Below, piece by piece: positions 2,442 to 25,215 of a stretch of 39,735 nt of DNA (the first letter of the stretch is position 1; each line of letters starts with the position of its first letter). A program made the translations under genes and the position numbers. The notes beneath the pieces are model-generated. The model was not told where the DNA came from, made no database searches, and saw nothing but the letters and a program-made list of their open reading frames with translations. The stretch is from a virus. Taxonomy: Duplodnaviria > Caudoviricetes. The stretch covers positions 1 to 39,735 of IMG/VR virus record IMGVR_UViG_3300017655_000192; one strand, 5' to 3'.

Positions 2442-2475
2442 GAAGCAGGATTTCCCCTTATCGGGAGCCTGCTTC
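2442..2475 (-). terminator. Hairpin at the end of the displaced rlmD 3' fragment
   Basis: gaagcagg...cctgcttc inverted repeat spanning the stop codon. Confidence 0.5.
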
Positions 2476-2545
2476 ATTTATTAAAATCATCTGCGAAACT
2501 ACCTCGACATGGCTTGAGAGGACAGAATGAATGTCATTTGAGTAG
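2458..2545 (-). other. rlmD: attR: displaced original 3' end of 23S rRNA m5U methyltransferase gene (rlmD/rumA)
   Basis: Translates ...SHVEVVSQMILINEAGSR*, with nearby VDMFPRT; RlmD ends in VDMFPxTxHVExV; serine-recombinase elements commonly target this site. Confidence 0.7.
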
Positions 2546-2564
2546 TCCGTTCTCGGAAACATAT

Positions 2565-2604
2565 CTACTGCGTTTTTGGGGCTATCGGTAGACGGGAACA
2601 TATC
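2565..2604 (-). repeat. 40-bp att-like direct repeat, copy 1
   Basis: ctactgcgtttttggggctatcggtagacgggaacatatc; 33/40 identical to 6281-6320; minus strand encodes DMFPSTDSPKNAV. Confidence 0.85.
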
Positions 2605-2727
2605 CATTGCATTACAATGCTCGTTTATCAATTTCCTAAAAACCAAGCACTTACGAGCTCATACGTTTCCATCCAATTAGATAATAATTTTCTTTGATAA
2701 CTTTATGTCACCTCTTCTAAACCATTC

Positions 2728-4095
2728 CTATATATCAACCCCTATAAGCTGTTTTGCAATTTGGAGAATTTTTTCTTGTCTATTAGGTGAAAGTTGCTTC
2801 ATATAATTTTCCAAATATAATCGTACTACCTGTTCCTCTTCCGATAAATCTACTTGAATGTCCGACTCAAAGGGGTGTCTTTTAATCATTTCTGCAATTT
2901 CAACATCTCCGAGAGTATTAAACAGCAAAATAAATTCCTCTTCTTCTAATTGTGCATCAAGTAATATATCTTCAAAATCATCAAAAGATTTTACTTTATC
3001 CTTTATAAGGGCTAATTTATCAGATGAATATCTGCATCTAATAAGTTCTTCAATTAACTTTCTATAATCTTCATCATCCATTTTAATACTGGATTCAAAG
3101 TGGATTTTCGGCTCTAAATCCGGATTTTGTGGGGTTATAAATACTTTACTGAGGGTATTTAATTTTAGTGCAATTTCTATATTCGTTACAATCTTCGGCA
3201 AACTTCTTTCAATATATTCTTGGAGTAAAGGATTTGTAAGATTTAACTCTTCGTATATGTGATTCGTTGCGTAGTTAATAGTTAACATCAATGTATGATG
3301 ATCATATTTTCGTAATTTTTTATATAAGTATTGAATATCTTCTCCCGTAATATTGAACTCCACTATGTTACGGTTTGCAAGAGAACATCCCAAAGCCGCT
3401 GTTAATACTTGTTCAAAAATATTGATCAATAATTCTGGATAACTCTTGTCATATCCATAAAGTAGATGATGGATGTTTTCTGTTGCAAATTTTTTACAAA
3501 ATTCATTCTCAAGGTATAAATTCTCAAGGTATTTTTGAATAAATTCTATTCCTGCCAAATCATTAACAGGATTGCAAAGCTGATAATCAATAGAAGCGGG
3601 AGAATCATGGGCCTCATACTCTAAGTTGTATAATTTAAAGAAAATCCCAATCCCATTTTCACTAAGTGTCGAATTATAAGAATGATTTATTGTATCTAGT
3701 TTATTCTTTTGAACCATATTATAGATACGCTTTGCTATTTGAAATCTAGTATTTACTAATTTTCTGCCTCTCTCATACAGCTCAGAAATCTTTACTGTTT
3801 TTAACTCGAATGCAGCATAGTCTGGATCTGGTATAGACTTTAAGTATACCCCTATTGAATAAAGATTAGATTTCATAATGCTTTCAGCAGTCTCAACTCT
3901 TATAGAACTGCTTTCACCCATATTATATCTCTCACTTTTATATGCTAAGAGACTAATACATTGTAGCTGAATATTTTCTAAATCAGACTCATTTAAAAGT
4001 CCACAGATATAGGCCTCCTGTAAAATAGAATTAAAATAGAATTCTCCACTCAAATTATGACTATTAATGATATGTTGCTTTTCAATATTCGCCAT
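2728..4095 (-). CDS. DUF6179-like protein
   Basis: About 455 aa from ATG 4095 (MANIEKQ), overlapping the upstream stop; motifs SSSIRVETAE, SIDYQL, GIEFIQKYLENL. Confidence 0.75.
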   Translation of the reverse strand: MANIEKQHIINSHNLSGEFYFNSILQEAYICGLLNESDLENIQLQCISLLAYKSERYNMGESSSIRVETAESIMKSNLYSIGVYLKSIPDPDYAAFELKTVKISELYERGRKLVNTRFQIAKRIYNMVQKNKLDTINHSYNSTLSENGIGIFFKLYNLEYEAHDSPASIDYQLCNPVNDLAGIEFIQKYLENLYLENEFCKKFATENIHHLLYGYDKSYPELLINIFEQVLTAALGCSLANRNIVEFNITGEDIQYLYKKLRKYDHHTLMLTINYATNHIYEELNLTNPLLQEYIERSLPKIVTNIEIALKLNTLSKVFITPQNPDLEPKIHFESSIKMDDEDYRKLIEELIRCRYSSDKLALIKDKVKSFDDFEDILLDAQLEEEEFILLFNTLGDVEIAEMIKRHPFESDIQVDLSEEEQVVRLYLENYMKQLSPNRQEKILQIAKQLIGVDI

Positions 4096-4573
4096 CTTCA
4101 TCCTCCTCATCATATTCATTATCCTCTGAATAATCAGGTGCATATCCATATCGTACATTACGTGCCATTTTCTCCAGTTCTCTTCCTGATAACAATGCTA
4201 GTGATCCTTGGCATTTGCCATCAAAGGAATTTTTCATAAACTTTATCAGTTCATCATCACTAATTAAATCGAGAGTTTCATTTTTATAAAAATAAAAGAT
4301 TTCAATTAACTCATGAAGTGTATCTACATAATTATGCATAGAAATATAAGGAGAATCACAAAACTCCTTGATTATTTTTTCAACTACGCCACCACCAAAT
4401 TCAATACGTCCATTACTTTTTAGTGAAACAGTTCTCGTTTCAACTAGTTCAATGGCATCTTGACAAGATAAAGTTAACCCAAATCTAAAAGTAAAATCAT
4501 TACATTTTACAATTTTATCAACTGCTTGTTTTTGTATTAATGATGAAAATACATTCATAATCTCAAATGACAA
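4082..4573 (-). CDS. DUF6323-like protein
   Basis: RBS GGAGGTGA then TTG 4573; GRIEFGGG, FCDSPYI, FYFYKNET, acidic tail; usual partner of DUF6179. Confidence 0.75.
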   Translation of the reverse strand: MSFEIMNVFSSLIQKQAVDKIVKCNDFTFRFGLTLSCQDAIELVETRTVSLKSNGRIEFGGGVVEKIIKEFCDSPYISMHNYVDTLHELIEIFYFYKNETLDLISDDELIKFMKNSFDGKCQGSLALLSGRELEKMARNVRYGYAPDYSEDNEYDEEDEDGEY

Positions 4574-4638
4574 TAGGATCACCTCCAAAATAAAAATAAA
4601 AATAAAAAAAATAAATATAAATATTTTTCAAATTACTA

Positions 4639-4667
4639 TTGACATTTAGCTAAAAATACGTTATAGT
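4639..4667 (+). promoter_or_regulatory. Near-consensus SigA promoter with no downstream CDS
   Basis: TTGACA-N17-TATAGT. Confidence 0.6.
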
Positions 4668-4708
4668 TAAAATGGTGTATTATTTTTAGTAAACGAATCA
4701 TGAATATG

Positions 4709-4737
4709 ATTATACCATTCACTTTTGATAAAAGCAA
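4709..4737 (-). promoter_or_regulatory. SigA promoter for the DUF6323-DUF6179 operon
   Basis: TTGCTT-N17-TATAAT with extended TG. Confidence 0.7.
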
Positions 4738-4741
4738 TACT

Positions 4742-4783
4742 AAAAAAAGCCACCGTATATTAATATAATCGGTGGCTATCTTT
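4742..4783 (-). terminator. Intrinsic terminator after the recombinase remnant, possibly bidirectional
   Basis: aaaaaaagccaccg...cggtggct. Confidence 0.75.
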
Positions 4784-4787
4784 ATAA

Positions 4788-4893
4788 TTATATTTCAACA
4801 TCAATCACGACTCCAGGCTTAAATCCTATAATTAACTTATCATCAAAGACTGTCACTTTTCAATAATTCGCCTTACTAGCTCCTTACTAGCTC
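4788..4893 (-). pseudogene. Decayed 3' end of a serine recombinase, paralogous to the end of 11434-13005
   Basis: Translates ELVRRII(fs)KVTVFDDKLIIGFKPGVVIDVEI* versus [31 protein letters not shown]; 11-bp tandem ccttactagct at its boundary. Confidence 0.85.
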
Positions 4894-4997
4894 CGCTTTT
4901 ACGCGTTACAAACTTCTTCTCGTTATTGTACAAGGTATTTAACTGCGCAAACATATTATTTACAGATTCAGTGTAGGCAGGAAACTGTTCATAGTAG

Positions 4998-5984
4998 TTA
5001 CTCCCACCAATGCTTTATTTCTGCAATGCTAACATCCCATACTTTAGCGTTTCCAGTAACTATAATTTTAACGTCTTCTATTTCCCCATCAAAATACGAC
5101 TTTACCTTCAATATATGTTTATCTTCATCTTTATCACTAAATTGAACCCACTCTTGTCCATTGATCATAATCTTAACCGAGCCTTCATATACTTCATTGT
5201 CTGGAATACCACAATTAGCATAGAACCATAGACTTTTCTTTTCTAAATTAAATAAGTACTCTTTATCCATTCCATCCTCGCTGCTAAACAAATTAAATTT
5301 GGGCTGTACCTTTTCCCCTAGCACAGTAAAGGTTGGAAGTTTTTTAGTTATTGCTGAGCTTGTATTTATTTCGTTTAATGCTTGAATAGGTCCTACTTTT
5401 TTATTCACATTCACACCATAATCAATTGTTTCAGAAACAACCATAACTCCCACGATTAACATAAGCATAGTTGCTGCTGATGCAACAAGTTTCTTAAAGT
5501 TAAGCTTAGAATAAAATCCTACTCTATATCCCACAAATCCTATCATTGCGCCTAATGTATTAGATATTACGTCCATAATATCAAATGTACCCAAGAAAGT
5601 TAAAGATTGCAACACTTCTAAAAATAAAATCACTGATATAAATAATGCTATAAACTTTCTAAAACGCACTGGATACATCAATGGAATTACTATTCCAAAA
5701 GGGATAAAGGCAGCAATGTTTCCAAAATCGTATAACCATGACATAGTTAGTTCTGGAAACCTTAGTGGGATTCCTTCTGGGACAATCATAAATGTATACT
5801 GATTATAATCGCTTCTTTGATCTATTCTATTAAACCCCAAGAACATGAAATACAATACTAAAATTGTATATACAACGGTTCCTATAAGAATATATATACG
5901 TAATTTATCCTTCATAACCTCGGAACTATTCGCTAACACTTCATTGCCCTTTAGGATTTCTTCTTGTTCGTTTTTCACAATCAA
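4998..5984 (-). CDS. VanZ-family membrane protein with C-terminal soluble (probably extracellular) domain
   Basis: GNIAAFIPFG, EVLQ and FDIMDVISNTLGAMIG VanZ motifs; several TM helices; RBS AAAGGAG. Confidence 0.85.
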   Translation of the reverse strand: MIVKNEQEEILKGNEVLANSSEVMKDKLRIYILIGTVVYTILVLYFMFLGFNRIDQRSDYNQYTFMIVPEGIPLRFPELTMSWLYDFGNIAAFIPFGIVIPLMYPVRFRKFIALFISVILFLEVLQSLTFLGTFDIMDVISNTLGAMIGFVGYRVGFYSKLNFKKLVASAATMLMLIVGVMVVSETIDYGVNVNKKVGPIQALNEINTSSAITKKLPTFTVLGEKVQPKFNLFSSEDGMDKEYLFNLEKKSLWFYANCGIPDNEVYEGSVKIMINGQEWVQFSDKDEDKHILKVKSYFDGEIEDVKIIVTGNAKVWDVSIAEIKHWWE

Positions 5985-6114
5985 AATCTCCTTTCAAATA
6001 ATATCACAGACTTTATCTCTTTTATTAGAGTATGACCCCCGGGGATGTGTATTCCACCTATCTTGTCAACTCAACCTCTTGTCATCAAATAAATCTCATC
6101 AACCTACCCGTTAT

Positions 6115-6170
6115 CTAATCTATCCACTCAACCCTACCACTTTTATGGCGATTGATATGCTTCCACGAAC
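6115..6170 (+). other. Inverted att-like remnant
   Basis: atctaatctatccactcaa matches the attR element-side arm (attcattctgtcctctcaa) at 14/19, followed by gatatgcttccacgaac (DMLPRT core). Confidence 0.5.
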
Positions 6171-6280
6171 TAAAAAGTAAGAATTTCCTAACATTGGTAA
6201 CTCCGTTTTAATACCCGCATTTTACTCAATGTCGGTAAATCTTTTATATATGGGTATTTTTAAATTTCTATTTCTCCTCC

Positions 6281-6320
6281 CTACCGTGTTTTTGGCACTA
6301 TCGGTAGGTGGAAACATATC
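6281..6320 (-). repeat. 40-bp att-like direct repeat, copy 2
   Basis: ctaccgtgtttttggcactatcggtaggtggaaacatatc; minus strand encodes DMFPPTDSAKNTV. Confidence 0.85.
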
Positions 6321-6340
6321 AAAATCTTATGAAAAACTTA

Positions 6341-7315
6341 TTATTTCCCAATTCTATTGTATACAGCTAATGCATCGGTAATATTATATTGTTCAGAATA
6401 GATATCTCCTTTTGCACCAGCTGTAATCAATATATATTCTTGGTGACCCACTTTTGCAAGACTCGCAAGACACAGACCAGCTTCATCGGTATATCCAGTT
6501 TTCCCTCCTAAAATTTCTCCATCAATAATGTTTTGATTGTTGAGTTTTTCAAACATGGTATTGTTAAAGGTTATCCCTCCAGGGTGCTTATTCGTGGGTT
6601 GTGTGGAATGACGAGACGAAGTAAAAATTTCCCTGAAAGTATCATTTTGCAAAGCATAGCTTAGAAGAACAGCCAGATCTTTCACTGTTGTGTAGTGGTT
6701 TTCATTGTGAAGTCCGGTGGTATTTTCAAAATGAGTGTTGTCCATCCCTAGATCTGCCGCCTTTTGATTCATCATAGCTACAAAGTCCTGCTCCGAACCA
6801 GCAATCTGATCCGCAAGCCCAATACAAGCTTCTGCACCACTTGGAAGCATCACCCCGTATAAAAGGTCAATAGCCCTTACCTTCTCACCTGGCTGGAAAC
6901 CGGCCATAGAAGCATTAGCACTGTAAAGACCATTAAAGGTATAGTGGGTAAGTTGTATTTCTTTCTGCAAATTTGTCAAATTTTCTATAGCAACAATAGC
7001 TGTCATCATTTTAGTCAATGAAGCAGGATAGATCTTTTCCTCGCTATTTTTTTGCATCAGAGTGGTTTGATCTTTTAAACGGATCAGAATCGCATTAGTA
7101 CTGTTCAGTTTATCGGGAGATATAGAAATAGAGGAATCGGGTTCTATCTCTGACGAGGGAATAGGCGTTGTTTTATCGACATATTCTTTCTCAAACTCAT
7201 GTTGGTTTCCCGGAGTAATGATGAATTTGAAAACAAAAGCAAAAACAACAACTATCAATAAAAATATTACAAATTCGCGTATTCCTGACTTTTTCTTTTT
7301 TATTTTTCGTACCAT
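6341..7315 (-). CDS. Serine D-alanyl-D-alanine carboxypeptidase (peptidase S11, VanY-D-like)
   Basis: N-terminal anchor, PASLTK (SxxK), SGA at motif 2, HFENTTGL, KTG. Confidence 0.9.
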   Translation of the reverse strand: MVRKIKKKKSGIREFVIFLLIVVVFAFVFKFIITPGNQHEFEKEYVDKTTPIPSSEIEPDSSISISPDKLNSTNAILIRLKDQTTLMQKNSEEKIYPASLTKMMTAIVAIENLTNLQKEIQLTHYTFNGLYSANASMAGFQPGEKVRAIDLLYGVMLPSGAEACIGLADQIAGSEQDFVAMMNQKAADLGMDNTHFENTTGLHNENHYTTVKDLAVLLSYALQNDTFREIFTSSRHSTQPTNKHPGGITFNNTMFEKLNNQNIIDGEILGGKTGYTDEAGLCLASLAKVGHQEYILITAGAKGDIYSEQYNITDALAVYNRIGK

Positions 7316-7382
7316 AATAAATACCTCCTTATTCTGCTTGAAATTATTTAACCACAGAACAAGAAGCTATGTTGGAATTCAA

Positions 7383-7411
7383 TCTTATGAACTTCTTAAG
7401 ATTTTCTTAAG
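7383..7411 (-). promoter_or_regulatory. Putative VanR/OmpR-type binding boxes upstream of the carboxypeptidase
   Basis: tctta(t/a)g at 7383, 7394 and 7405, exact 11-bp phasing; TGnTTAAAT -10-like element near 7346-7354. Confidence 0.7.
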
Positions 7412-8552
7412 ACGGAAGCTTTACTGTAAATGTAGTATTTTCCGGGTTGCTTTCTACAGAAATCGTTCCATTGTGAGCTGTGACAATTTCTTGTGCAATT
7501 GCCAAACCTAGCCCTGCTCCACCGGTGTTTGTGGAACGTGCAGAATCTAATCGGTAAAATTTTTCAAAAATAGTATCAAGCTTTGCCTGTGGGATTGGAT
7601 TTCCCTGATTCATAAAAGTTATAACAATATTTTTATCCTGCTGCCCTGCAGAAATGTCAATGACACTATTTTCATCGCTATAGGCTATGGCATTTTTCAG
7701 AATATTATTGAACACACGGGCTAATTTGTCTGCATCTCCCCACAGAGTGAGTCCGTCAGGTACATTGACAGATATCTGCTTTCCCTGTGGAGTCAGCATT
7801 GGATAGAATTCATCTGCCATCTGCTGGAGCATGAACAGTAAATTTATTTTTTCTTTATTCAAAACAATAGTTTGAAGATTGAATCTTGTGATCTCAAAAA
7901 ACTCATTGATAAGCTGTTCTAATCGATAAGCTTTTTCCAAAGTAATACCGACATATTTTGCCTTCTGTTCAGGTGGCATATCAGGAGCCTCATCCAGTAG
8001 ATTTAAGTATCCTATAACGGAGGTCAGAGGTGTCTTTATATCATGAGCCAAGTAAACGACCAAATCATTTTTGCGCTGTTCGGCATCAAGTGCAGCTTTT
8101 TTTTGTTTTTCCAAGTTGTTTTTTATCTGATTAAGCTTAATTTCCATAAAATCCAATTCCGGTGATAATGTAATTTCATTATCGGATTCCTCAACAAGTT
8201 TATCCATTCCGTTACTTACTTCATCGAAATATTTAGTAAACCAAGAAATTGAAAATCTAAGCAAAATAACTAAGAATATGATAATCACAATAAGTGTAAT
8301 AATATCTTTATTATAAAGAAATGTATACCGATAAATTATTACAGCATCGCTTTCACTCAAATAAAACTTATTCTTTAAAAATTCTACAATACTCTCTCCA
8401 ATATTGAAATTGTCTTGAATTACATCACGCAAAAAAATAACAGTTGCGATCGTGGCAAAAACAATAAGGAGCACTCTAATAAATACTTTTCTTTTTAATT
8501 TTGTATAATCATTGTTTCTCTTATCTCTGTCACTTTTCAATTTTATAACCAA
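7407..8552 (-). CDS. vanS: VanS-family sensor histidine kinase
   Basis: Start MVIKLK as in VanS-A; two TM segments; YLAHDIKTPLTS H-box; NILKNA; GGAGLGLAIA. Confidence 0.9.
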   Translation of the reverse strand: MVIKLKSDRDKRNNDYTKLKRKVFIRVLLIVFATIATVIFLRDVIQDNFNIGESIVEFLKNKFYLSESDAVIIYRYTFLYNKDIITLIVIIIFLVILLRFSISWFTKYFDEVSNGMDKLVEESDNEITLSPELDFMEIKLNQIKNNLEKQKKAALDAEQRKNDLVVYLAHDIKTPLTSVIGYLNLLDEAPDMPPEQKAKYVGITLEKAYRLEQLINEFFEITRFNLQTIVLNKEKINLLFMLQQMADEFYPMLTPQGKQISVNVPDGLTLWGDADKLARVFNNILKNAIAYSDENSVIDISAGQQDKNIVITFMNQGNPIPQAKLDTIFEKFYRLDSARSTNTGGAGLGLAIAQEIVTAHNGTISVESNPENTTFTVKLPS

Positions 8553-9228
8553 CCCCCCATACCGTTTTGATATATTTAGGATTTTCCGCACTATCACCCA
8601 TTTTTTCTCTTAAATGTCGAATATGAACCATTACCGTATTATTGCTGTTACTAAAATACTTGTCTCCCCATACCTCGCGGAACAATTCTTCAGAACTTAC
8701 CACTCGTCCTCGATTGGAACAAAGAACCCAAAGAATAGAAAACTCCGTAGGTGTAAGCGATAACTTTTTCTCATTCAGCGTACATTCACGAGCATCCATG
8801 TCTAACACCAAGCCGGAAAAGGCAATCAAGCGTTCTTCCTGTTTTTGCTCTGGCGAATTATATTTGGTAAATCTTCGGAGCTGCGCCTTTACACGAGCAA
8901 CTAATTCCAAAGGACGGAATGGTTTAGTGATATAGTCATCGGCACCTAATGTCAGCCCGGTAATCTTATCGATTTCTTCTTCTTTAGCTGTCAGTAAAAT
9001 AATCGGAAAATTATGTTTTTCCCTAATCTTCCGACAGATAGTAAAGCCATCAATATCTGGCAGCATAACATCAAGTATCGCAAGGTCCAACTGCTTCGAC
9101 TCAACACATCGGAACGCATCTTGACCGTTATAAAATTTGTATACTGTAAAACCTTCATTTTTTAGATAAACTTCAATTAGATCTGCTATAGCTTGTTCAT
9201 CGTCAACAACTAAAATATTGATACTCAT
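8530..9228 (-). CDS. vanR: VanR-family OmpR response regulator
   Basis: Receiver LAILDVMLP, KPFRPLELVARVKAQLRR, YFSNSNNTVMVHIRHLREKM, KTVWGVGYKIEK; closely resembles VanR-A/D. Confidence 0.92.
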   Translation of the reverse strand: MSINILVVDDEQAIADLIEVYLKNEGFTVYKFYNGQDAFRCVESKQLDLAILDVMLPDIDGFTICRKIREKHNFPIILLTAKEEEIDKITGLTLGADDYITKPFRPLELVARVKAQLRRFTKYNSPEQKQEERLIAFSGLVLDMDARECTLNEKKLSLTPTEFSILWVLCSNRGRVVSSEELFREVWGDKYFSNSNNTVMVHIRHLREKMGDSAENPKYIKTVWGVGYKIEK

Positions 9229-9246
9229 AAATTTTATCCCTTCTTC

Positions 9247-9489
9247 CTACTTGCCAATTGTCTTTTTATACCTCTGCTGGTTAGATGAGGTCTTTTCAAT
9301 TGCCTTTATATTACCTTCTATTTTATTTACGTAGTTTAAAAATAAAGTCCCAAGCAGAAGTCGATCCTTTCTGGGTATTCTATTCCATACATAACCCTTG
9401 AACAGGTCCTTAACAAGAAAGACTTCACCTGCATTCAAGTTTTCAGTTTCCTTAATAGCTTCTTCTAGTAGCTCATTAACATCGCTCAT
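9247..9489 (-). CDS. DUF1413 (LP1413-like) winged-helix ssDNA-binding protein
   Basis: 80 aa; GEVFLVKDLF..W, LGTLF, KTSSNQQRYKK pattern. Confidence 0.75.
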   Translation of the reverse strand: MSDVNELLEEAIKETENLNAGEVFLVKDLFKGYVWNRIPRKDRLLLGTLFLNYVNKIEGNIKAIEKTSSNQQRYKKTIGK

Positions 9490-9536
9490 GTTGTCATCTC
9501 CTTATCAATAACAATATCAACAACATTGTTAATAAG

Positions 9537-9565
9537 ATTATATACACACTACTAACTTTTTTCAA
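9537..9565 (-). promoter_or_regulatory. SigA promoter for DUF1413-vanR-vanS
   Basis: TTGAAA-N17-TATAAT. Confidence 0.65.
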
Positions 9566-9574
9566 TTACAAAAT

Positions 9575-9617
9575 AAAAACCGCCAACCAAAAGAATTTAT
9601 ATCCTGATTAACGGTCA
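9575..9617 (-). terminator. Terminator, duplicate of 11381-11423
   Basis: 39/43 identical; hairpin plus T-run on the minus strand. Confidence 0.85.
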
Positions 9618-9629
9618 CAAATGAGTTAT

Positions 9630-10526
9630 TTATTTTGTAAATAGTTCGCAATTGTATAATATTTCCTTTGTATCAAGTAAGGTAGCTTCTTCTATTCCTA
9701 CATTATTGACTTTCATAAAGGATTGTACCGCTTGGTAACCCACTGCATAACCAGCAAATGGTGATAAGCCAACAGGTTGATAGCCCTGTTCTTTTGCAAT
9801 AGTGTCACCAAACATATAACTACTAACCTCAGCAAATCCTTTAACATCTAGTGACTCCTTTATTATCTCTGTTGAATATTCCAAGTCCTCTTTGTCAAAA
9901 GAAGTAACCCAAGGTCCTAAAAATTCATCACCATACAGTTCTCTTGCAAAAGACTCTGCCAACCCCTCTATAATTAAGTAATCACCAACAGTAACGTTCC
10001 CATGATCCCAATCAAAATATGAAAAACGGATATTATGATGAAATTCATGTGCAATTACAGCAGGTATCTTCGGAATATTATAGGAATTAGGATAAATAGA
10101 TACTTGAATAAAACCTGGGATTCCACCGAACCCACAATATCCCTTTTGCAATTCGAGCTTTTTTGGATCAGCTATATACATTCCAAATTTTAACTCATCG
10201 GCATTTATTTTCAGATTATTTTTTTGAATAAAATTAACACAGGTCTTCAAAGTGTCATAGGCAGTTTGAAGAGCTTGAATTTCTTTTAGCTTCTCTAACG
10301 CAATCTTTCCAGTTTCGGTATTTGATATATCAAGGTAACCAAGCATTTTTGTAGCCATTATTACGTCGTATCCATTAGGTTGATTTGCCTTTAATGGAAC
10401 GTTAATGATATTCCACATTTTTTCAAAGGGCTTCATCATTGAATATCGATAGAAGTCTTCTTTCTCTTCTTCCATACTAAATAATTTTTCATATTGTTTG
10501 ATTGTATCTTCAATTATTATTTGCAT
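9630..10526 (-). CDS. DUF2268 putative Zn-dependent protease (YjaZ/YjfC-like)
   Basis: AHEFHH (HExxH), IIEGLAESF, AGYAVGY; coupled to upstream MerR. Confidence 0.85.
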   Translation of the reverse strand: MQIIIEDTIKQYEKLFSMEEEKEDFYRYSMMKPFEKMWNIINVPLKANQPNGYDVIMATKMLGYLDISNTETGKIALEKLKEIQALQTAYDTLKTCVNFIQKNNLKINADELKFGMYIADPKKLELQKGYCGFGGIPGFIQVSIYPNSYNIPKIPAVIAHEFHHNIRFSYFDWDHGNVTVGDYLIIEGLAESFARELYGDEFLGPWVTSFDKEDLEYSTEIIKESLDVKGFAEVSSYMFGDTIAKEQGYQPVGLSPFAGYAVGYQAVQSFMKVNNVGIEEATLLDTKEILYNCELFTK

Positions 10527-11286
10527 TGCTACCACCTTTCTTCTTTTGATTTACTGAAAAAATTTTCATTGCCTCACTCATAAACTTGGCCAATCCTTCA
10601 CTATACTGATCAATGTTTTGTGTAAAGCGTTCATCTTCAATATAGAGTTGACCTAATCCTTGGAAGGCATCAAGAGAATACTTACCAAAATTCTTATTTA
10701 AAAAGTCATACCATTCTTTAATCGTTTTTTGTACTTCTTGCGAGTTAGGAGAATAATTGCGAAGTTGTACAAGTTTATTGAAAATCACATCCCAATTTTG
10801 AGATAAATCTTGTTGTTCATCTATAGCCATGTCTCTTAATTTTGCGCTTATCTCATCAACAGGTTGATCCCCCCAACGCATGCGAGCCTCTTGTTCATAC
10901 TGGTTGAGTCTAAAGTTAATACCCTCAAACCTTTCTTCGTTCGACATTTTAATTTCTCCCATCGTGTGTTTAATCGTTTTATCAATGGTTTCAATCATTT
11001 TATCGACTCTATTTCGTTTCTCAATTAACATTTTCCGTTGTAAGATTAACGCTTCCTGTTGATTAAATGAAGGGCTATTGATAATCGTTTTAATCTCCTT
11101 CAAGGAGAAATCAAGCTCTCTGAAAAATAAAATTTGCTGTAATTTTTCAAGATCCTCTTCAGAATAAAGCCGATAGCCAGAATAGGTGGTTTCTTTTGGA
11201 GTTAATAACCCAATCTGATCATAATGATGAAGTGTACGAACACTAACACCAACCAATTCAGCTACTTCTTTTACTTTCATACTCAT
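10510..11286 (-). CDS. mta: MerR-family regulator with TipAS domain (Mta-like)
   Basis: VSVRTLHHYDQIGLL, GYRLYS, C-terminal GLGQLYIEDERF. Confidence 0.85.
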   Translation of the reverse strand: MSMKVKEVAELVGVSVRTLHHYDQIGLLTPKETTYSGYRLYSEEDLEKLQQILFFRELDFSLKEIKTIINSPSFNQQEALILQRKMLIEKRNRVDKMIETIDKTIKHTMGEIKMSNEERFEGINFRLNQYEQEARMRWGDQPVDEISAKLRDMAIDEQQDLSQNWDVIFNKLVQLRNYSPNSQEVQKTIKEWYDFLNKNFGKYSLDAFQGLGQLYIEDERFTQNIDQYSEGLAKFMSEAMKIFSVNQKKKGGSNANNN

Positions 11287-11313
11287 GCCTTATATGCACC
11301 TCCTTCAGTTGTC

Positions 11314-11344
11314 ATTATAAAGTATCACGTAACGTAAGGGTCAA
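11314..11344 (-). promoter_or_regulatory. MerR-type promoter with 19-bp spacer and Mta-like dyad
   Basis: TTGACC-cttacgttacgtgatactt-TATAAT; resembles the B. subtilis mta operator. Confidence 0.85.
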
Positions 11345-11380
11345 TAGTTAAATGAGGTAATTCAAACCCTGATCTTGCAG

Positions 11381-11423
11381 AAAAACCACCAACCAAGAGA
11401 ATTTATCTCCTGATTGACGGTCA
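11381..11423 (-). terminator. Terminator of the recombinase operon
   Basis: accgtcaatcaggaga...tctcttggttggtggttttt on the minus strand. Confidence 0.8.
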
Positions 11424-11433
11424 GCCACCAATG

Positions 11434-13005
11434 TTATATTTCTACATCTATCTCAATCCCAGACTTGAATTCAACAGTGAGCTTATCTTCATATATCGTT
11501 ACCTTTTCAATCAGCCGCCTTACCAACTGCTCATCATATTCCTCCAACCCGCAGGACTGTTCATTCAAGAAATCATTCATTTCAGCGATTCGTTGCCTTT
11601 TCCCTTCTCGCTCTGCATTTTCAACCAGTGCATTTTGCTTCAATTCTCGAAGGCGGTAAATTTCATCAGCCACATCTTCATAGTCATTCTTTGACTTTGC
11701 TTGTATAAGAAGCTGTTGCTGTAATTCTTCCAATTTGCCATCAATATCATCGGTGGCAGTATCATTTTCTTCATTTAATATAGTAGCGATATTTATCTGC
11801 AACGTTGAGAGAAAGGATTCTTTTTTAGCCAAAAGGTCGTTAATAGCCTTGACCACCGCTGTCTGCAACGTTTCCTCGTTTATGGTAGGGGCAGTGCATT
11901 CAGACCCTCTTTCCTCCAATCGGCTGACGCATCTCCAAACAATAGACTTGTAGCCTCGGTTATTCCAATGTACCCGTCGGTAAATATCGCCGCAGTGTCC
12001 GCAGTAAACAATACTCGATAAAGCATACTTGCTGCTATAAACTCTCTTTTTACCGCTTTTCCCGCCACGAAGATTGGCTCTTCGAACCATCTCTTCTTGA
12101 ACCTGCATAAAAAGCTCGCGTGGAATGATAGGCTCATGACTGTTTTCTACATAATACTGGGGAACGATGCCATTATTCTTGACTCGCTTTTTTGAAAGGA
12201 AATCAACCGTATATGTTTTTTGTAAAAGGGCATCACCAATGTACTTTTCATTCTGAAGTATTTTTTTCAGTGTTTCTGGTCTCCATTTTGCTTTTCCTGC
12301 TGCTGTAAGAATACCGTCTGCTTCTAGTCCTCTAGCTATTTGTAATAGGCTAGCCCCTTCAAGGTACTCTCTGTAAATCCGTTTAACAACCTCAGCACCC
12401 TTTGGGTCAATCACTAGTTGCTTGTTTTCATCCTTGGTGTATCCAAGGAAACGCTTATGGTTGACCTGAATCTCACCTTGCTGATAGCGGTATTGAATAC
12501 CTAGCTTTACGTTTTGGCTTAAGGACTGGCTTTCCTGTTGGGCAAGGGATGCCATAATGGTCAGCATGATTTCGCCCTTAGAATCCATGGTGTTAATATT
12601 CTCTTTTTCAAAGAATACTGCGATGTTTTTATCCTTTAACTGACGGATGTATTTAAGGCAATCCAAAGTGTTTCTAGCAAATCGGCTAATGGACTTTGTG
12701 ATGATCATGTCTATTTTTCCTGCCATACACTCTTCAATCATACGGTTGAATTCTTCACGCTTTTTTGTATTTGTGCCTGTGATGCCGTCATCCGCAAAAA
12801 TTCCTGCCAATTCCCATTCCTTGTTCTTCTTAATATAGTTTGTATAATGCTCGATCTGAATGTCATAGCTTGAAGCCTGCTCCTCACTATCCGTTGAAAC
12901 ACGGCAGTAAGCAGCGACCCGTATTTTAGGTTTACTTTCACTACTTTTATTATTTCCAATCCGTTTAATGGCAGGAATCACCGTTACATTCCTACTTACC
13001 GCCAC
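11434..13005 (-). CDS. Large serine recombinase (third of triplet)
   Basis: YCRVST catalytic Ser, KSISRFARN, recombinase domain, Zn ribbon CGHC, coiled coil. Confidence 0.95.
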
Positions 13006-15022: not shown

Positions 15023-15055
15023 CTCTGAAACCCTTATATATCAACGATTTCAGGG
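15023..15055. promoter_or_regulatory. Imperfect palindrome upstream of the recombinase operon
   Basis: ctctgaaacccttatatatcaacgatttcaggg. Confidence 0.45.
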
Positions 15056-15286
15056 CATTATCTCTGCTAAAAAAGGGGAGAAAGTTTGGCGATTTAGTGC
15101 GTCTATCTTGTGGAACTCTATTTCAGTTATTAAGCCTTTTCCGAGCATCTTTCTTAGTAATTTTTCTGCCTGGATATAATCAAACTCACGCTGTAGCTGT
15201 TCCTGTGATACTCTCTTTAATTCAACGCTTTTGTCTATAATCACATCTGAAATCTTTGTAATCTTTTTATCTTCGTACTGATTCAC
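15050..15286 (-). CDS. SHOCT-domain protein
   Basis: KMLGKGLITEIEFHKI; usual position ahead of recombinase triplets. Confidence 0.8.
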   Translation of the reverse strand: MNQYEDKKITKISDVIIDKSVELKRVSQEQLQREFDYIQAEKLLRKMLGKGLITEIEFHKIDALNRQTFSPFLAEIMP

Positions 15287-15362
15287 TAGGAATCACCTCC
15301 TACCTAATAGCCGTGGGAACAGGTCGAAGTTGAGGATTTGAAAAATTTAATATGAATCAGAG

Positions 15363-15403
15363 CATAAAAAAAGAGCCTGCAAGGGAAGAACCCCTACAGG
15401 CTG
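15363..15403 (-). terminator. Terminator after the endolysin
   Basis: agcctgtagggg...cccttgcaggct-cttttttt. Confidence 0.8.
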
Positions 15404-15482
15404 CATAAATCTAATAGTTTAATATTTTATTTGGGAAACTCGATTAAAATCAAGAAACACTGCTTATTAGCTTACCAATTTA

Positions 15483-16184
15483 TTAATCATACTTAATAAA
15501 TGCATCCGTAAAGCCTGCCTTTTTAGCTTTGACAAGCTGTGCCTCAGCATTTGCTTTGTCCGAATATGCACCGATCTGCACACGGTAATATTTCTTTTTC
15601 ACCGGCTCTGCTGCTTTATTTTCTGTACTCAGTAGCTTCTTCACATCTGCACGAAAGGTATTCATACTCTTTCCATGCTTAGGAAACCAGTGCATCACAT
15701 CTGCATGATTATTTGCGATGCCCAGTTTATGACCCTCCGAATGGCAAATGATATCTTTTTCTGTTAAATCATATTCTCGGCAAAGCATCACACAAAGCTC
15801 CACTGCATTCTGCCAAGCCTTTCTAAAATAAGCTTCATTCTTTGAGACATTGTAGCCAACCATCGTAGATCCCTTACCATAGGAAAACCCCGCTGGTTCA
15901 CAAATTTCAATACCAATATGAGTGTTGTTCCCCGCTCCACCACAGTGCCAACCTCTATGGTTCCAAGGTAAGTACTGCCATACTTCTTTGTCATCAACAA
16001 AAGCGTGAACACAAACTTGACGATTGGTTTCACCCGCTTTGTACGACTTATTCCAACGACTGAACCAGTCTGCTGCCATCACACCCGGAGTTGCAGTAGA
16101 ATGGACCATAATTCCTTTTGGAGTAATCTTCTTTCCTGCTGTAAAACAATCATTTCTCGTCATATATTTAGTGTTTAGTTTCAT
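15483..16184 (-). CDS. Endolysin: N-acetylmuramoyl-L-alanine amidase (Amidase_2) with SPOR-like C-terminus
   Basis: IMVHSTA, GWHCG, IGIEICE, CHSE, YRVQIGAY. Confidence 0.9.
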   Translation of the reverse strand: MKLNTKYMTRNDCFTAGKKITPKGIMVHSTATPGVMAADWFSRWNKSYKAGETNRQVCVHAFVDDKEVWQYLPWNHRGWHCGGAGNNTHIGIEICEPAGFSYGKGSTMVGYNVSKNEAYFRKAWQNAVELCVMLCREYDLTEKDIICHSEGHKLGIANNHADVMHWFPKHGKSMNTFRADVKKLLSTENKAAEPVKKKYYRVQIGAYSDKANAEAQLVKAKKAGFTDAFIKYD

Positions 16185-16596
16185 TTTTATCATCCCCCTT
16201 GCCATGTAATTGAGCTAAGACATCTTTCAATTTTTGTGGAATTGGAAGCCCGATTCTTGAGCCATTTTCCATTATGCTGATGCCCTCATTTGAGAGATAA
16301 AAAAAGATGACGGCTGTGCGAATGACACTGCCCTCACCAATCAGTCGGCTGTCAATGATATGAGCAATCCCGACAAGTATAAAAATAAGTATCTTTTTAA
16401 AAATTCCTCTTGCTCCAATTTCACTTGAAAGCTCTTTATTGATAATCGCCACCATAATGCCAGTAATGTAATCCACAATGACAAAAATAATGAGAGCATA
16501 TAAAAATCCATCAAGTCCCCCAAGAAACCAACCCAACCAACCGCCCAATACTGCAATTACAGTTTGCAAAATTACCCAAAGCTCTTTTATTGCCAT
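16168..16596 (-). CDS. Phage holin (Phage_holin_4_1 family)
   Basis: DYITG, GIFKK, NEGISIMEN, GLPIP. Confidence 0.92.
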   Translation of the reverse strand: MAIKELWVILQTVIAVLGGWLGWFLGGLDGFLYALIIFVIVDYITGIMVAIINKELSSEIGARGIFKKILIFILVGIAHIIDSRLIGEGSVIRTAVIFFYLSNEGISIMENGSRIGLPIPQKLKDVLAQLHGKGDDKNETKH

Positions 16597-16631
16597 GTTC
16601 TCCCCTCGCTCTCCATCTGTTTAATCTATAT

Positions 16632-16668
16632 AAAAAGGCGCCTGTGACAAGAGAGCCACCAAGCGCCT
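16632..16668 (-). terminator. Hairpin between tail and lysis genes
   Basis: aggcgc-ttggtggc...gtcac-aggcgcct-tttt. Confidence 0.55.
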
Positions 16669-16681
16669 GTATTTTCATTAT

Positions 16682-17740
16682 TTAATACGGTGCATAATAC
16701 ACATAACCACTAGCTTTCACATAAAATCCGTCACCCGGTACATAGATAGCCCCGCCAAATGTATCTGAATTGGTAGTAGTAAATCCCGGTTGTTCGACTC
16801 CTTCCCAAGTCAGACCATCAGCCGATACATAAAGCATGCCTTCATTGAAAAGAGCATATTTTCCCCAATCTTCCATCCAAATGATGTTCTGTGGATTCGG
16901 AATGTTGTTATTGGCCAGATTCCCAACATGAGATAGGTTTGTTTCTATCAGCTCTGTAGCACTATCGTTCATGACACACAAATTCACATGAAAGATTCCA
17001 CTAACATATCGATATTTCATTACAAAAAGTTTATCGTGAACCGAACGGATATACATATAATAAGTATTTAAATCCTCTGGAATGGTGGTTGTCCATGTAC
17101 CTGGGCTTGAAGTACTTGCCGATGCAATCGACCGATCACCTCCAACGATTCCGATAAATCTCCCTTTATGGGCGGTCATATAGCTAAAGATGGGAACAGA
17201 TGTCCCGTCAGCACCTACCAAAGTCCAAGCCACTCTTTGTGTTAACGAAGCAAAATTGTAATATACAGGAGACTTATAATACCACCAACTAACCACTCCG
17301 GCTCCCCTATTTATGTCATATGCTCCAGTCGTCATGGAGTTTTGTGCTCCTTGACAGTAACCAGCATTATACCAGGTGATGCCATCAAAAGAAGCGATAA
17401 TATTGGCCAAGCCTATAATTTTGGCTAAAAACACACCGTCACCTGCCCATAAAATTTCTGGGGCACCATTATTCCACCAAGAAACATTCACCACGGTCCA
17501 TTTTCCAGTGGTTTTATTGTAGTAGGACGTATATGGGGTCTTTGCACGATACACCGCAATCTGTGCGTTCCCATTGTCGTGAACATCAATTCTTGTTTCA
17601 CTTCCATACTTGGTATAGCCAAAATCGTTATAATATTTTCTATGCCAACTTAAGGTGGGGATGGGAAGAATGAGTTCACCCCTGCCTCCAAAAGCAGTCC
17701 AGATTGCTAGTGTATTGTTAAAATTACTATGGTAACTCAT
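16682..17740 (-). CDS. Putative receptor-binding/tail tip protein, beta-propeller-like
   Basis: Last tail gene; Asp-box-like SFDGITW, SADGLTW, STSSPGTW; aromatic-rich. Confidence 0.6.
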   Translation of the reverse strand: MSYHSNFNNTLAIWTAFGGRGELILPIPTLSWHRKYYNDFGYTKYGSETRIDVHDNGNAQIAVYRAKTPYTSYYNKTTGKWTVVNVSWWNNGAPEILWAGDGVFLAKIIGLANIIASFDGITWYNAGYCQGAQNSMTTGAYDINRGAGVVSWWYYKSPVYYNFASLTQRVAWTLVGADGTSVPIFSYMTAHKGRFIGIVGGDRSIASASTSSPGTWTTTIPEDLNTYYMYIRSVHDKLFVMKYRYVSGIFHVNLCVMNDSATELIETNLSHVGNLANNNIPNPQNIIWMEDWGKYALFNEGMLYVSADGLTWEGVEQPGFTTTNSDTFGGAIYVPGDGFYVKASGYVYYAPY

Positions 17741-17743
17741 GCC

Positions 17744-18901
17744 CTATCCCACCACCTTTTCAATTCCAGTAATCCGACCACTGCTATCGGTCGTATAGTT
17801 ATAACTTGCCGTCTCTCCATCTGCATATGTGATTTCAAATCTCGCTGCATCCACCAACAAAGTGGACACTTCTTTTAATAAAAGCTCTGAAAATATATCC
17901 TCTAAAGTAATGCTCGTAATTCTACCGCTACCATCAGTGGAATAGCTATATTTAACATGATATTGATGTGTATCCCCTTTTTCCACTTCGTAAGTTACAT
18001 TAATAAAACTACCATCAACCGTTAGATTTTTTACGATTGTGTAAGAAACCCCAAGTTGGTCCATTTGGTACTTAAGACCATCAACAGAGCTGCCCACATC
18101 ATTCAGAGAGCTTTCCACTTTGCTCATTGAGTTTTCTATCCGATAAAAAGTATCCGAAATACTTGGTTTGTATCTGCCAACCTCAACTTGAATGTTATAA
18201 CGATAGAAGGGGTTATATTCCAATGAGATAATCCTTGTTTTCACATCAATACCGAGTGGTTTGAATACAATATGGACATTATCTCCAACTGCTAGATTCA
18301 ATAGTTTAAAGAATGAAATATTATAGGAAGATGCATTTTCCCTTGAATCGTGAGAAACAGACACATTAGTAACGTTTTTCGAACCCATTACCGGCTGGTA
18401 CTCCATACTGCCACGGTGCTTACGGATATTAATTAAGTAGTCGTTATATTCAATTTCTCCCCCTAAAATGGCAATGTACTGCATAAGAGCTGCCCTTCTA
18501 GACACTTCCTGGTTAATTTTCATTGTGCAACTATCGGTAAAATCAACTGTGCCAGCTGAAAAAGGAGTTCCTGATAATAGCTGATTTAATCCAGCCGCAG
18601 GATCTCCCGTAAAATCAAACGCATCTATATTAAAAATCTCATCATTTAAAATGTAAGATACATGTTCACACGTGACAGAACAGACTGGAAGGCTACCTTG
18701 TAACGACTTCGCTATTTGTACAATCTCAAAATATTGACCATTAAGCTTTGCCAGCTGTTTTGTTTTTAAAGCGAGGGCAGACTTGGCTAGAACCGTAAAA
18801 GATAGTGTAAACTCTCCTTCTAGCGTTTCCCTTATATTCGCAGACATCACTTTACGGATCGTTTGTATCAACGTGTTTCCTGCATAAATTTCTATCACCA
18901 A
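17744..18901 (-). CDS. Tail spike/Tal-like protein (prophage tail endopeptidase-like N-terminus)
   Basis: GEFTLSF, GQYFEI, CEHVSY, GGEIEYN, VGDNV; coiled coil; duplicated C-terminal TDxSGRIT. Confidence 0.75.
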   Translation of the reverse strand: MVIEIYAGNTLIQTIRKVMSANIRETLEGEFTLSFTVLAKSALALKTKQLAKLNGQYFEIVQIAKSLQGSLPVCSVTCEHVSYILNDEIFNIDAFDFTGDPAAGLNQLLSGTPFSAGTVDFTDSCTMKINQEVSRRAALMQYIAILGGEIEYNDYLINIRKHRGSMEYQPVMGSKNVTNVSVSHDSRENASSYNISFFKLLNLAVGDNVHIVFKPLGIDVKTRIISLEYNPFYRYNIQVEVGRYKPSISDTFYRIENSMSKVESSLNDVGSSVDGLKYQMDQLGVSYTIVKNLTVDGSFINVTYEVEKGDTHQYHVKYSYSTDGSGRITSITLEDIFSELLLKEVSTLLVDAARFEITYADGETASYNYTTDSSGRITGIEKVVG

Positions 18902-18913
18902 ACTGCCCTCCTT

Positions 18914-21514
18914 TTACGAACCAGCAACTCCTAAGTTTCTAACGGTTACTGTATTTTGGTTCCATTGTAGTTGAGCAATAATACGAGTTAACACATTCCC
19001 ATCAATCGTTAATGGAATCGTGATATCAAATGATGCACCACTCTTGCCGCCTTCAACTCCAGTAACCACGCTGTCCATATTTAAATCAAATTCTGTAGGT
19101 ATAGCGCCTTCCATTTCTTTTTCTACATTGCTCATGGCATCAGAGAATCCAACACCAATCCCTTCACCCATGTTTTCACCAATTCCAGCAAAAACTCGTG
19201 AAGGTGAACGAATCCCAAGCACACCTTTTACACTACTGACGATGCCACCGACAAAACCACTAACCTTATCTTTTATCCAGCCAATCATGGAAGCAATCCC
19301 ATTCCAAAGTCCTTGAACTATGTTTACCCCTACTTGTCCAATGGAAACAGCCGCTTTTCCAATTCCAACGATGATGGCAGAAATAATCTGTGGTAATTGC
19401 GCCACAAGCTGAGGGATAGCCCGGAGTAATCCCGCTGCCAACTGAATGATCAGTGAAATACCCAACTCAACAATTTTAGGTAGATTCCCAGTAATAAAGT
19501 TAATGATTGATGAAATAATAGCTGGCAATGCTTCTATGAGTCTAGGTAGAGCATTGATAATTCCTACGGCTAAACCTTCAATAATTTTAAAAGCCGCCTC
19601 CAAAACCATGTCGAGATTGTTGATGATGGTTTCCACAATTAATAGAATCGCTGATACAATGGATGGAATCAGGTTAGGTAAAGCCTCGCCAATCCCAGTT
19701 GCTAGAGTCACAACCATAGTTAATGCAGCTTCGATTAAGGCAGGGAGGTTAGCGAGAATACCGTCTACCAAACTAAGAACAAGATAAAGTGCCCCTTCTG
19801 TGATTTGAGGTAGAGCCTCGATAATCCCTTGAAGTAGAGTCGTTACAATTTGCATGGCTGAATCGATGATCATTGGAAGGTTTTCTACAATCGCACCCAC
19901 TAAGGACATAATAATTTGAAGTCCCAACGTAACGAACTGAGGCAATTGCTCGGTGATGAGTTCTGTTATACCAGCAACGGTCTCTCCTATCACTTCTGCA
20001 ATTTTTTCAAAATCTCCATCCGCTTCATTAATCCCATTCGATAAGCCAGAAAACAAGTCCGTAATTCCAGCAGAAACTTCACTTACCGCTGGTAGAAACA
20101 CCCCTTGTAAGGAACGTTTTACACCCTCAATTCCATCCGTTAGGTTATCGTATTTGACCTCTGTTATTTGAGCCAATGCATCTCCACTCGCGATGGTACT
20201 ATCTTTTATCCCACCAAGAACTGGTAGTATACTGGCTTCTAAATCTTCAAACTGTGTACCAAACAACTGCACACCAATTGTGTTTTTTAGAAGAGGATCT
20301 TCAATCTCTTGAAGTTTTTGAATGACATTAAAGAATGCAGCATTAGCTGTTTCCCCACCTTGGGCAAACTTATTCGTCATTTCTTCTGCATTAAGCCCAA
20401 GTGCAGTGAAGGCTTCCATACTCGACTTACTGCCGTCTTTGGCTCGGATATTAAATTCCTTAACAGCATCCCCAACCTTATCAATACTGAAAGCACCACT
20501 CTCTGCCCCAGCTACTAAACTAGCAATAAACTCATCCGCACTAAGGCCAAGTGACGCATATTGAACGGAATATTCATTCAAGGTATCTAATAGATCGCCA
20601 TTTTTATCGGCACCGTTTTGAGCACCAACGGCAATAATGTTATAAGCTTCATCTGCAGAGATGCCAAAGTTTTTCATAAGAGCACTGGCTGCCCTAGCCG
20701 ATTCTTGCATATCAAAGTCAAAAGTTTTCCTCAAAGCAAAACCGGACTCGGTGGCTTTTTCTAGCTCTTCACCCATGAGTCCGGTTATCTTTTGTACCTC
20801 TGAAATTCCTACTGCGACATCATCCAAGCTATCTCCAAAATTATGCTTGTACACGTTTTGAGCAATTTCTCCCAACTCTTCAAGTTCGGCACCTGTTGCA
20901 CCGGTAGAGGCAGAAATCTGATTGACAGCCATATTGTACTCATCACCAAGTTTTATCAAGCTGACCCCTGTGGCAACCGCTGCAGTTCCAATGGCAGCTA
21001 CAGCTGCTCCGATGGTTGCACCGATTCCTTTTAAGACGCCACCGAGCTTTTCGAACCGACCGGAAGCATCTTCAGTCTGATCCGCTGCATTCTGTACTTC
21101 ATCAGCAAACTCCTCAACTTCTCCTTCAGCATCATTGAATCCTTCATTCAACTCTTGGATGGCTTGATTGTTATTCTCAAGTTCTCGCTCCATCTTCATC
21201 AGTTCAGACTTAGCGTTATTCAGTTGAATTTGCCAATTTTGTGTTCGTCTATCATTCTCTCCAAAAGAATCTGCTGCGTTTCTAAGTGCCGCTTCTAATG
21301 TACTAATTTTATCCTTTTGTGCATCAACTGACTTTGCAAGTGCTCCGTTTCTTGCAGTTAATGCTTCAATGGATTGATCCTGCCGATCAAATTGGGCGGT
21401 GACAAGTTTCATTTCACTTCCTAACACCTTAAAATTTTGATTGATATCCCTCAAGGCATTTTTGAAGTCCTTCTCGCCTTCCACACCGATTCGAAGTCCA
21501 AAGTTATCAGCCAC
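18914..21514 (-). CDS. Tail tape measure protein
   Basis: About 866 aa; GLRIGVEGEKDF start, DKVGDAVKEFNIR, amphipathic repeats, LGIRSPSRVF. Confidence 0.93.
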   Translation of the reverse strand: MADNFGLRIGVEGEKDFKNALRDINQNFKVLGSEMKLVTAQFDRQDQSIEALTARNGALAKSVDAQKDKISTLEAALRNAADSFGENDRRTQNWQIQLNNAKSELMKMERELENNNQAIQELNEGFNDAEGEVEEFADEVQNAADQTEDASGRFEKLGGVLKGIGATIGAAVAAIGTAAVATGVSLIKLGDEYNMAVNQISASTGATGAELEELGEIAQNVYKHNFGDSLDDVAVGISEVQKITGLMGEELEKATESGFALRKTFDFDMQESARAASALMKNFGISADEAYNIIAVGAQNGADKNGDLLDTLNEYSVQYASLGLSADEFIASLVAGAESGAFSIDKVGDAVKEFNIRAKDGSKSSMEAFTALGLNAEEMTNKFAQGGETANAAFFNVIQKLQEIEDPLLKNTIGVQLFGTQFEDLEASILPVLGGIKDSTIASGDALAQITEVKYDNLTDGIEGVKRSLQGVFLPAVSEVSAGITDLFSGLSNGINEADGDFEKIAEVIGETVAGITELITEQLPQFVTLGLQIIMSLVGAIVENLPMIIDSAMQIVTTLLQGIIEALPQITEGALYLVLSLVDGILANLPALIEAALTMVVTLATGIGEALPNLIPSIVSAILLIVETIINNLDMVLEAAFKIIEGLAVGIINALPRLIEALPAIISSIINFITGNLPKIVELGISLIIQLAAGLLRAIPQLVAQLPQIISAIIVGIGKAAVSIGQVGVNIVQGLWNGIASMIGWIKDKVSGFVGGIVSSVKGVLGIRSPSRVFAGIGENMGEGIGVGFSDAMSNVEKEMEGAIPTEFDLNMDSVVTGVEGGKSGASFDITIPLTIDGNVLTRIIAQLQWNQNTVTVRNLGVAGS

Positions 21515-21536
21515 GACTTCACCTCCTCTCTTTTTG

Positions 21537-21571
21537 GGCATAAAAAAGACACCCCGTTTAAAAGAGTGCCT
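21537..21571 (-). terminator. Moron terminator
   Basis: ggcactctttt...ggggtgtc-ttttttatgccc. Confidence 0.7.
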
Positions 21572-21580
21572 AACGATTTA

Positions 21581-22643: not shown

Positions 22644-22659
22644 TGTTCTTCATCCCCCT

Positions 22660-24317: not shown

Positions 24318-24321
24318 AGCC

Positions 24322-25205: not shown

Positions 25206-25215
25206 GAACGATCAC

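Follow-up and report, generated by a model that had tools for sequence, protein, structure and literature searches.

We analysed a 39,735-nucleotide stretch of DNA (the window; IMG/VR record IMGVR_UViG_3300017655_000192) that corresponds to positions 6522-46256 of contig C16 of genome G000. The window includes the right end of a prophage with three serine recombinase genes that is integrated in the last codons of rlmD. Some 9 kb of cargo genes separate the recombinase triplet from the right attachment site, attR. The original prediction, made from the sequence alone, described this cargo as an integron-like array of envelope-stress cassettes, captured and exchanged through att-like sites at the unit junctions. 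The prophage and its attR are laid out as follows.

15050..39735, minus strand: prophage body (lysis, tail, head, terminase, methylase and helicase genes), continuing through C16 to the left attachment site, attL, in rlmD on contig C27
11434..15015, minus strand: serine recombinase triplet (530, 137 and 523 amino acids; Pfam Resolvase, Recombinase and Zn ribbon domains)
2546..2607, minus strand: two attB-left-like half-sites (-54 and -93 from the crossover), the constitutive phage right end (two motifs in 57/57 ends, its own included)
2512..2535, minus strand: P arm of attR, 24 bp, conserved in 56 relatives
2510..2511, minus strand: attR crossover dinucleotide, CA of a His codon, from the limits of the match to genome G005
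2458..2509, minus strand: 3' tail of host rlmD, displaced by the prophage and forming the B' arm of attR (HVEVVSQMILINEAGSR-stop), in frame in intact rlmD of G005, G007 and G018

Consistent with the predicted use of rlmD as target, we identified an empty site in the near-identical relative G005 (99% identity in the flank). The match of G005 to the window stops at 2511, its match to C27 starts at the same codon, and its intact rlmD has a tail equal to window 2458-2509, which therefore places the crossover at the CA dinucleotide and gives an island of 51,595 bp. C16 and C27 overlap by 224 bases, and the rlmD end on C27 carries a phage-supplied tail. Because the 24-bp P arm in attR and the P' arm of attL on C27 form an imperfect inverted repeat, both outer sites look complete. 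For comparison we used 80 loci with a close third recombinase, 56 of which show the right end within the available sequence; the other 24 (15 too short, 9 not) stand outside the counts, and L120-L122, which are near 100% identical including the host flank, were not counted as independent.

The cargo, read from the triplet towards rlmD, consists of the following features.

11381..11423, minus strand: post-recombinase hairpin, first copy (folds at -24.5 kcal/mol)
9630..11286, minus strand: Mta (MerR-TipAS) and DUF2268 genes, a present/absent unit between the two hairpin copies
9575..9617, minus strand: post-recombinase hairpin, second copy, then a DUF1413 promoter-like site at 9565-9537 (11/12)
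9247..9489, minus strand: DUF1413 gene (Pfam), a common first gene after the recombinase (L025, L028, L045, G053 and others)
6341..9228, minus strand: vanR-vanS-like pair and S11 D,D-carboxypeptidase gene, a clostridial module lacking its own upstream promoter region (84.9% identity to L085 over 9252-6321)
6281..6323, minus strand: right-end stub with the first attB-like half-site only (by alignment)
6105..6281, minus strand: left-end relic of a second element, first 28 positions gone, containing an inverted attB-like motif at 6151-6170 (79.5% identity to the prophage's own left end)
4998..5984, minus strand: VanZ-family gene (Pfam PF04892), closest named relatives clostridial (82%)
4913..4991, minus strand: 79-bp fragment of an unrelated phage cargo gene (84.8% identity to the last cargo gene of L032)
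4788..4893, minus strand: 3' end of the third recombinase gene of a second prophage, now a frameshifted relic in which 11 bp are duplicated
4735..4785, minus strand: hairpin that follows the recombinase relic and comes from the second prophage (-18.3 kcal/mol)
4082..4588, minus strand: DUF6323 gene (Pfam PF19848)
2728..4158, minus strand: DUF6179 gene (Pfam PF19677)

The triplet and the cargo genes (Mta with its MerR and TipAS domains, DUF2268, DUF1413, response regulator, histidine kinase, peptidase S11, VanZ, DUF6323 and DUF6179) lie where the original prediction put them, although it misplaced DUF1413 with vanR-vanS. Every scar that it named is real, but the joint between DUF1413 and vanR carries none. 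The description as envelope-stress cargo suits the vanR-vanS-S11 peptidase genes and VanZ, and nothing else in the region.

We observed remnants of a second element at two places in the distal part of the cargo. At 6281, positions 2-43 of a right-end profile join positions 29-189 of a left-end profile directly (both profiles were built from the relatives); the second motif, P arm, crossover and P' arm are gone. The stub and the phage right end share a 40-nt repeat (2565/6281) with 33/40 identical positions, against 22 in the best of 20 shuffles. We read 6105-6323 as a dead head-to-tail tandem junction with its crossover core deleted. The predicted att-like sites at 6281-6320 and 6115-6170 are thus genuine sequences, but the former belongs to this coreless junction and the latter is the motif that normal left ends carry in inverted orientation, as found at +139 to +163 in 7/15 P'-type junctions. 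Breakage at half-site edges was not supported as a rule for dead junctions in general, as 33/36 left-end matches in the loci start intact; two of the three partial matches come from the window's lineage and one is an intron insertion. Near 8019 (minus strand) in L118 and at ~4670 in L103, after the recombinase, the P' arm motif of an att site is interrupted by what is presumably the end of a group II intron.

The second remnant is the recombinase 3' end that had been predicted at 4788-4893, and that indeed matches the window's own gene at 72% (4788-4884). The triplet of metagenome locus L125 is intact (74% DNA identity to that of the window; third protein 82%). Behind it come the same hairpin and DUF6323-DUF6179, and the locus matches window 4881-2729 at 94.8% identity. 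The relic at 4788-4893 is the recombinase tail of an L125-type phage together with its native DUF6323-DUF6179 cargo. Its 11-bp duplication is absent from L123. DUF6179 was found in none of the viral contigs searched, and its matches in 401 genomes of the phylum reach at most 49%. The distal 3.8 kb are likely what is left of one or more older prophages of related type, once stacked in tandem at this site and since reduced. Since a 79-bp fragment of an L032-type cargo gene lies upstream of the relic, a third donor is possible.

The units nearer the triplet have other histories. The predicted duplication of the post-recombinase terminator was confirmed as a 43-nt repeat (9575/11381; 39/43 identical, against 26 in the best of 20 shuffles). 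A terminator scan (4 found against 4.1 expected) did not call these hairpins, which do fold and may act as terminators. In G053, L045 and L118 the recombinase is followed by one hairpin and then DUF1413, and in L078 and L105 two hairpin copies flank Mta-DUF2268; this is the only unit that behaves as present/absent at its scar. Because the scar is a widely shared post-recombinase hairpin without att character, Mta-DUF2268 was likely exchanged by short homology between hairpins. A joint skipping the unit (9575 to 11381) occurs in none of the contigs of eight runs, and contigs drop rare forms. The only unit-sized joint in such contigs (2565-6290, in one run, with 21 letters on the short side) is weak and was set aside as another phage's end.

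DUF1413 goes with the post-recombinase slot and not with vanR-vanS: besides the window's, its end has eight different continuations in relatives. With this variety and the scar-less joint, we rejected a single DUF1413-vanR-vanS-peptidase unit. A ribosome-binding region joins vanR to the DUF1413 end, without the upstream region seen in L085, where vanR-vanS-S11 stands directly behind a tandem junction at an rlmD-type site. The match of the module to L085 and four clostridial genomes stops at 6321. The module is clostridial, with matches at 79-85% in several of the 401 genomes of the phylum, and a plasmid search returned vanR-vanS-like genes at ~66% as top matches, no record covering 80% of the query. 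VanR scores 420.6 against its NCBIfam cut-off of 350 and VanS 403.9 against 400, and VanZ and the carboxypeptidase fall below van-specific cut-offs. The cargo open reading frames (ORFs) include no vanH, D-Ala-D-Lac/Ser ligase or vanX; for want of ligase genes, the module is not a van glycopeptide-resistance operon. A second DUF1413 gene lies between terminase and portal (28648-28995).

The tandem att cores placed at 2546-2604 proved to be present as motifs, but they are not particular to this locus. Both attB-left-like motifs occur in 56/56 relatives with a readable right end, mostly at -94/-55 or -114/-64 from the crossover; the 9 kb hold four attB-like motifs, against 0.13 expected from the remaining genome. 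The cores at 2546-2607 are a fixed end of the phage family and not a trace of local integration events, and we rejected them as a local record of repeated integration. The third recombinase of this family (L025-L104) is 92-96% identical across Bacilli, Clostridia and Erysipelotrichia.

Of the 56 cargo regions that are complete (median 5.9 kb), only L057, L078 and L089 have one of the four kinds of scar inside, and 53 have none. Of six flagged loci, one was the window itself, and L060 and L088 were dropped because the match was to the tail of their own recombinase, left beyond an early stop codon. The cargo of relatives is highly mosaic, with mostly internal breakpoints, and most commonly of resistance type (MFS, ABC-F, nucleotidyl- and acetyltransferases). 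We also observed that the post-recombinase cargo of L025-L104 comprises 328 ORFs in 150 protein clusters (67 representatives scanned), including resistance-type genes, GmrSD nucleases and spore germination operons.

The block itself recurs in other hosts. L105 matches window 13973-5287 at 96.9% and has the same dead junction, L124 matches 6578-2713 at 98.7%, and L123 matches 5321-2502 at 97.2% and continues into another host's rlmD tail. In four runs, one from each of four other studies, near-identical contig pieces of at most 6.7 kb span 2582-11542, and there is no depth at 1500-1983. The DUF2268 and S11 peptidase genes matched only the L105 contig among the viral contigs. Such recurrence would imply mobility of the block. 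It is also, nearly whole, the outcome that the original prediction had named as speaking against itself, namely conservation of the 9 kb as one block.

We consider it probable that the 9-kb region arose by tandem accretion of prophages at rlmD followed by deletion, and that it now moves as one unit. An intact phage would have entered the attL of a resident related element, after which deletions would have taken out the crossover core of the junction and most of the older phage. Mta-DUF2268 would have been gained or lost by recombination between similar post-recombinase hairpins, and vanR-vanS-S11 would have joined through short microhomologies, to be read now from the DUF1413 promoter. The composite would excise and travel between the outermost attL and attR. 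Stacking at rlmD is common, since 15/56 right ends are followed by a phage-type P' arm (in some of them the arm may be a tail from an earlier event that has become part of the host gene) and a second right end lies within 10 kb in 4/56 relatives (L026, L056, L083 and L098). Tandems at rum (rlmD) are described as arising by site-specific accretion and as excised by phage integrases, with the cargo of rum prophages between the phage core and the att sites (PMC13651849); accretion with decay of elements has also been published (PMC5704250). The locus at the rlmD hotspot is thus likely a tandem of prophages that has collapsed, and not an integron-like array; genes are known to be gathered in this way. 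It offers an example of gene gathering by rlmD prophages with donors traced for three of four units, and of a vanR-vanS-S11-VanZ set of clostridial origin that moves between hosts in sludge and soil communities.

Several observations weigh against this history. No intermediate that combines this cargo with two intact prophages turned up among the loci compared, and no excised circle or empty site appeared in four runs that may be the source of this DNA, whose contigs drop rare forms. No single donor could be assigned to the VanZ gene and the 79-bp fragment, so two or three elements may have been stacked. The same relics could also come from illegitimate recombination between co-infecting phages. 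Ordinary phage mosaicism would have cargo and relics swapped between co-infecting or co-resident phages, both by homologous recombination at the right end, the hairpins and the recombinase 3' end and through illegitimate joins, without any tandem having formed at this locus. The mosaic cargo of relatives fits such swapping, as does L078, which matches the window at 91% across lysis-recombinase DNA and 97% in its first cargo yet at only 67-72% in head genes, and mosaicism likely accounts for the Mta-DUF2268 unit. For the region as a whole we regard it as unlikely: a head-to-tail tandem leaves just the order seen here, in which a right-end stub is joined directly to a left-end stub and a second recombinase tail with its native cargo, and then a right end, come downstream. 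Intact tandem junctions are common in relatives.

The proposed array, in which the triplet excises and inserts single units at att-like sites between them, gains from three boundaries in relatives that coincide with scars as predicted: relatives have or lack Mta-DUF2268 precisely between the two hairpins, the vanR-vanS-S11 match ends at the edge of 6281-6323, and the L125 match begins inside the recombinase relic. At the end of DUF1413, however, and at or just past the end of DUF6179, where L124, L125 and L126 depart from the window sequence, cargo changes without a scar. Integrons gain accessory genes stepwise next to a recombinase, with the newest element proximal, and the outcome in the window is alike. 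The window has neither IntI nor a repeated attC, its units have their own promoter-like sites, and the added unit would have been a whole phage that was later trimmed. The four scars do not repeat one site type: one is a copied hairpin, one the dead junction between two element ends, one the relic of a gene and one a normal phage end. No tyrosine recombinase occurs among the 59 ORFs scanned (48 in the window and 11 in the remaining island). With the internal core lost, internal scars missing from nearly all relatives and the 9575-11381 joint absent from the eight runs, exchange of this kind is highly improbable. What survives of the original prediction is a modular, stepwise origin of the cargo with relics of site-specific recombination and a role for element-end homology.

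A proposal that adds to the tandem history, and is compatible with it, is that the half-sites are active. The phage would have an extended attP, unusual for serine recombinases, in which the triplet binds accessory sites to either side: the attB left half-site twice, at fixed distances, to one side, and once more in inverted orientation to the other. The outer copy would set the cargo joining point and serve other elements as a landing site, so that a phage family found in both Bacilli and Clostridia, and often carrying resistance genes, would have a cargo slot guided by its recombinases. We advance this only tentatively. Serine integrase sites normally measure 40-50 bp, according to bioRxiv 10.1101/2025.05.02.651858, so the fixed extra half-sites suggest accessory binding. 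No published description of attB-like half-sites beside attP was found in open-access papers, supplements excluded.

Consistent with active half-sites, the right-hand junctions of the 56 relatives and the window comprise 37 distinct cargo ends abutting the outer motif. At its edge we found T at -2 in 37/37 types and a purine at -3 in 33/37, with background beyond, such that conservation ends abruptly three bases outside the first motif; 3/666 pairs of junction types share at least 25 nt of upstream sequence. In both cases with a traceable donor, the break falls at the motif edge and 4-6 bases resemble the motif start. In L047 and L053 the crossover is followed not by the rlmD tail but by the apparent inner part or tail of another element's right end. 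On the other side, serine recombinases cut at the centre of their site, which here would fall ~21 bp on the other side of the motif. Binding-site selection with deletion bias also yields a sharp edge, the donor cases number only two, and the intact target predicted from L047 and L053 has 0 matches in viral contigs, their left junctions being off-contig. Functional half-sites would explain why the family keeps three recombinase genes, and would give a direct test of directionality control in triplets. Separately, the L031 group and the L030 group have a common cargo, 95% identical, that stops precisely where the first attB-like motif begins; one of the two groups has an extra 1.1 kb with a rifampin ADP-ribosyltransferase domain gene.

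The nearest known systems are the SMphage/phi-m46.1-type rum prophages, such as phi-SsuFJNP3_rum (MN270260.1; PMC13651849, PMC7168690), which use the same target gene; the likeness to SMphages was judged by the family description in PMC13651849. Ten core proteins of phi-SsuFJNP3_rum are 54-71% identical to those of the window prophage (TerL 66%, portal 62%, capsid 56%, PolA 62%), as are its recombinases at 40-69% (third recombinase 69%); its record has a truncated triplet right after rum, and both prophage types carry variable cargo between core and att site. The window prophage differs in its Bacillaceae-type host and in a recombinase shared at 92-96% among three bacterial classes. Its tail and tape-measure genes have no match to phi-SsuFJNP3_rum at E 1e-8, the right-end profile has none in the two named phage records, and its tandem partner is a decayed phage and not, as in the rum tandem used for comparison, an integrative and conjugative element (ICE).

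As in tandem accretion and cis-mobilizable elements (CIMEs; PMC5704250), a functional element sits beside a decayed one at one att site and the composite captures genes. The hybrid right-end/left-end junction at 6281 and the relic of a second recombination module are what an accreted tandem should show. A strict CIME keeps both att sites after integrase loss, whereas the decayed part here has lost its left att core; moreover, the recombinase is a serine and not a tyrosine enzyme, and the intact element is gene-proximal. Streptococcal ICEs with serine integrase triplets (PMC4701971) likewise have three co-oriented genes, a very short direct repeat and cargo between triplet and target, but those triplets target mutT, traG and hsdM, with rumA left to single integrases, whereas this phage triplet targets rlmD. 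Staphylococcal cassette chromosome (SCC) elements, with SCCmec and tandem SCC-like cassettes at rlmH (PMC11470126), share several large serine recombinases, a methyltransferase gene as target and stacked islands. Tandem SCC cassettes keep live att sites and excise, unlike the coreless internal junction, and the window recombinases score far below the Ccr cut-offs.

We also noted features elsewhere in the element and its flank. The island left end (C27:862-1 and C16:59989-59620) holds ~1 kb made of two 500-bp copies, 72.7% alike, between attL and the phage left-end sequence, which lacks its first 26 profile positions behind this duplicated unit. The same 996 bp (98.9%) lie downstream of the phage in L061, and a similar unit follows an rlmD paralogue on contig C39. 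The host short-chain dehydrogenase gene at 606-1807 is split over two frames and has a Gln/Met-rich N-terminus, its DNA being 99% conserved in G005. In the phage body, three 58-nt direct repeats precede small genes at 31424-32945, and the replication region (C16:50022-51417) contains an SfLAP membrane gene and a divergent TetR gene.

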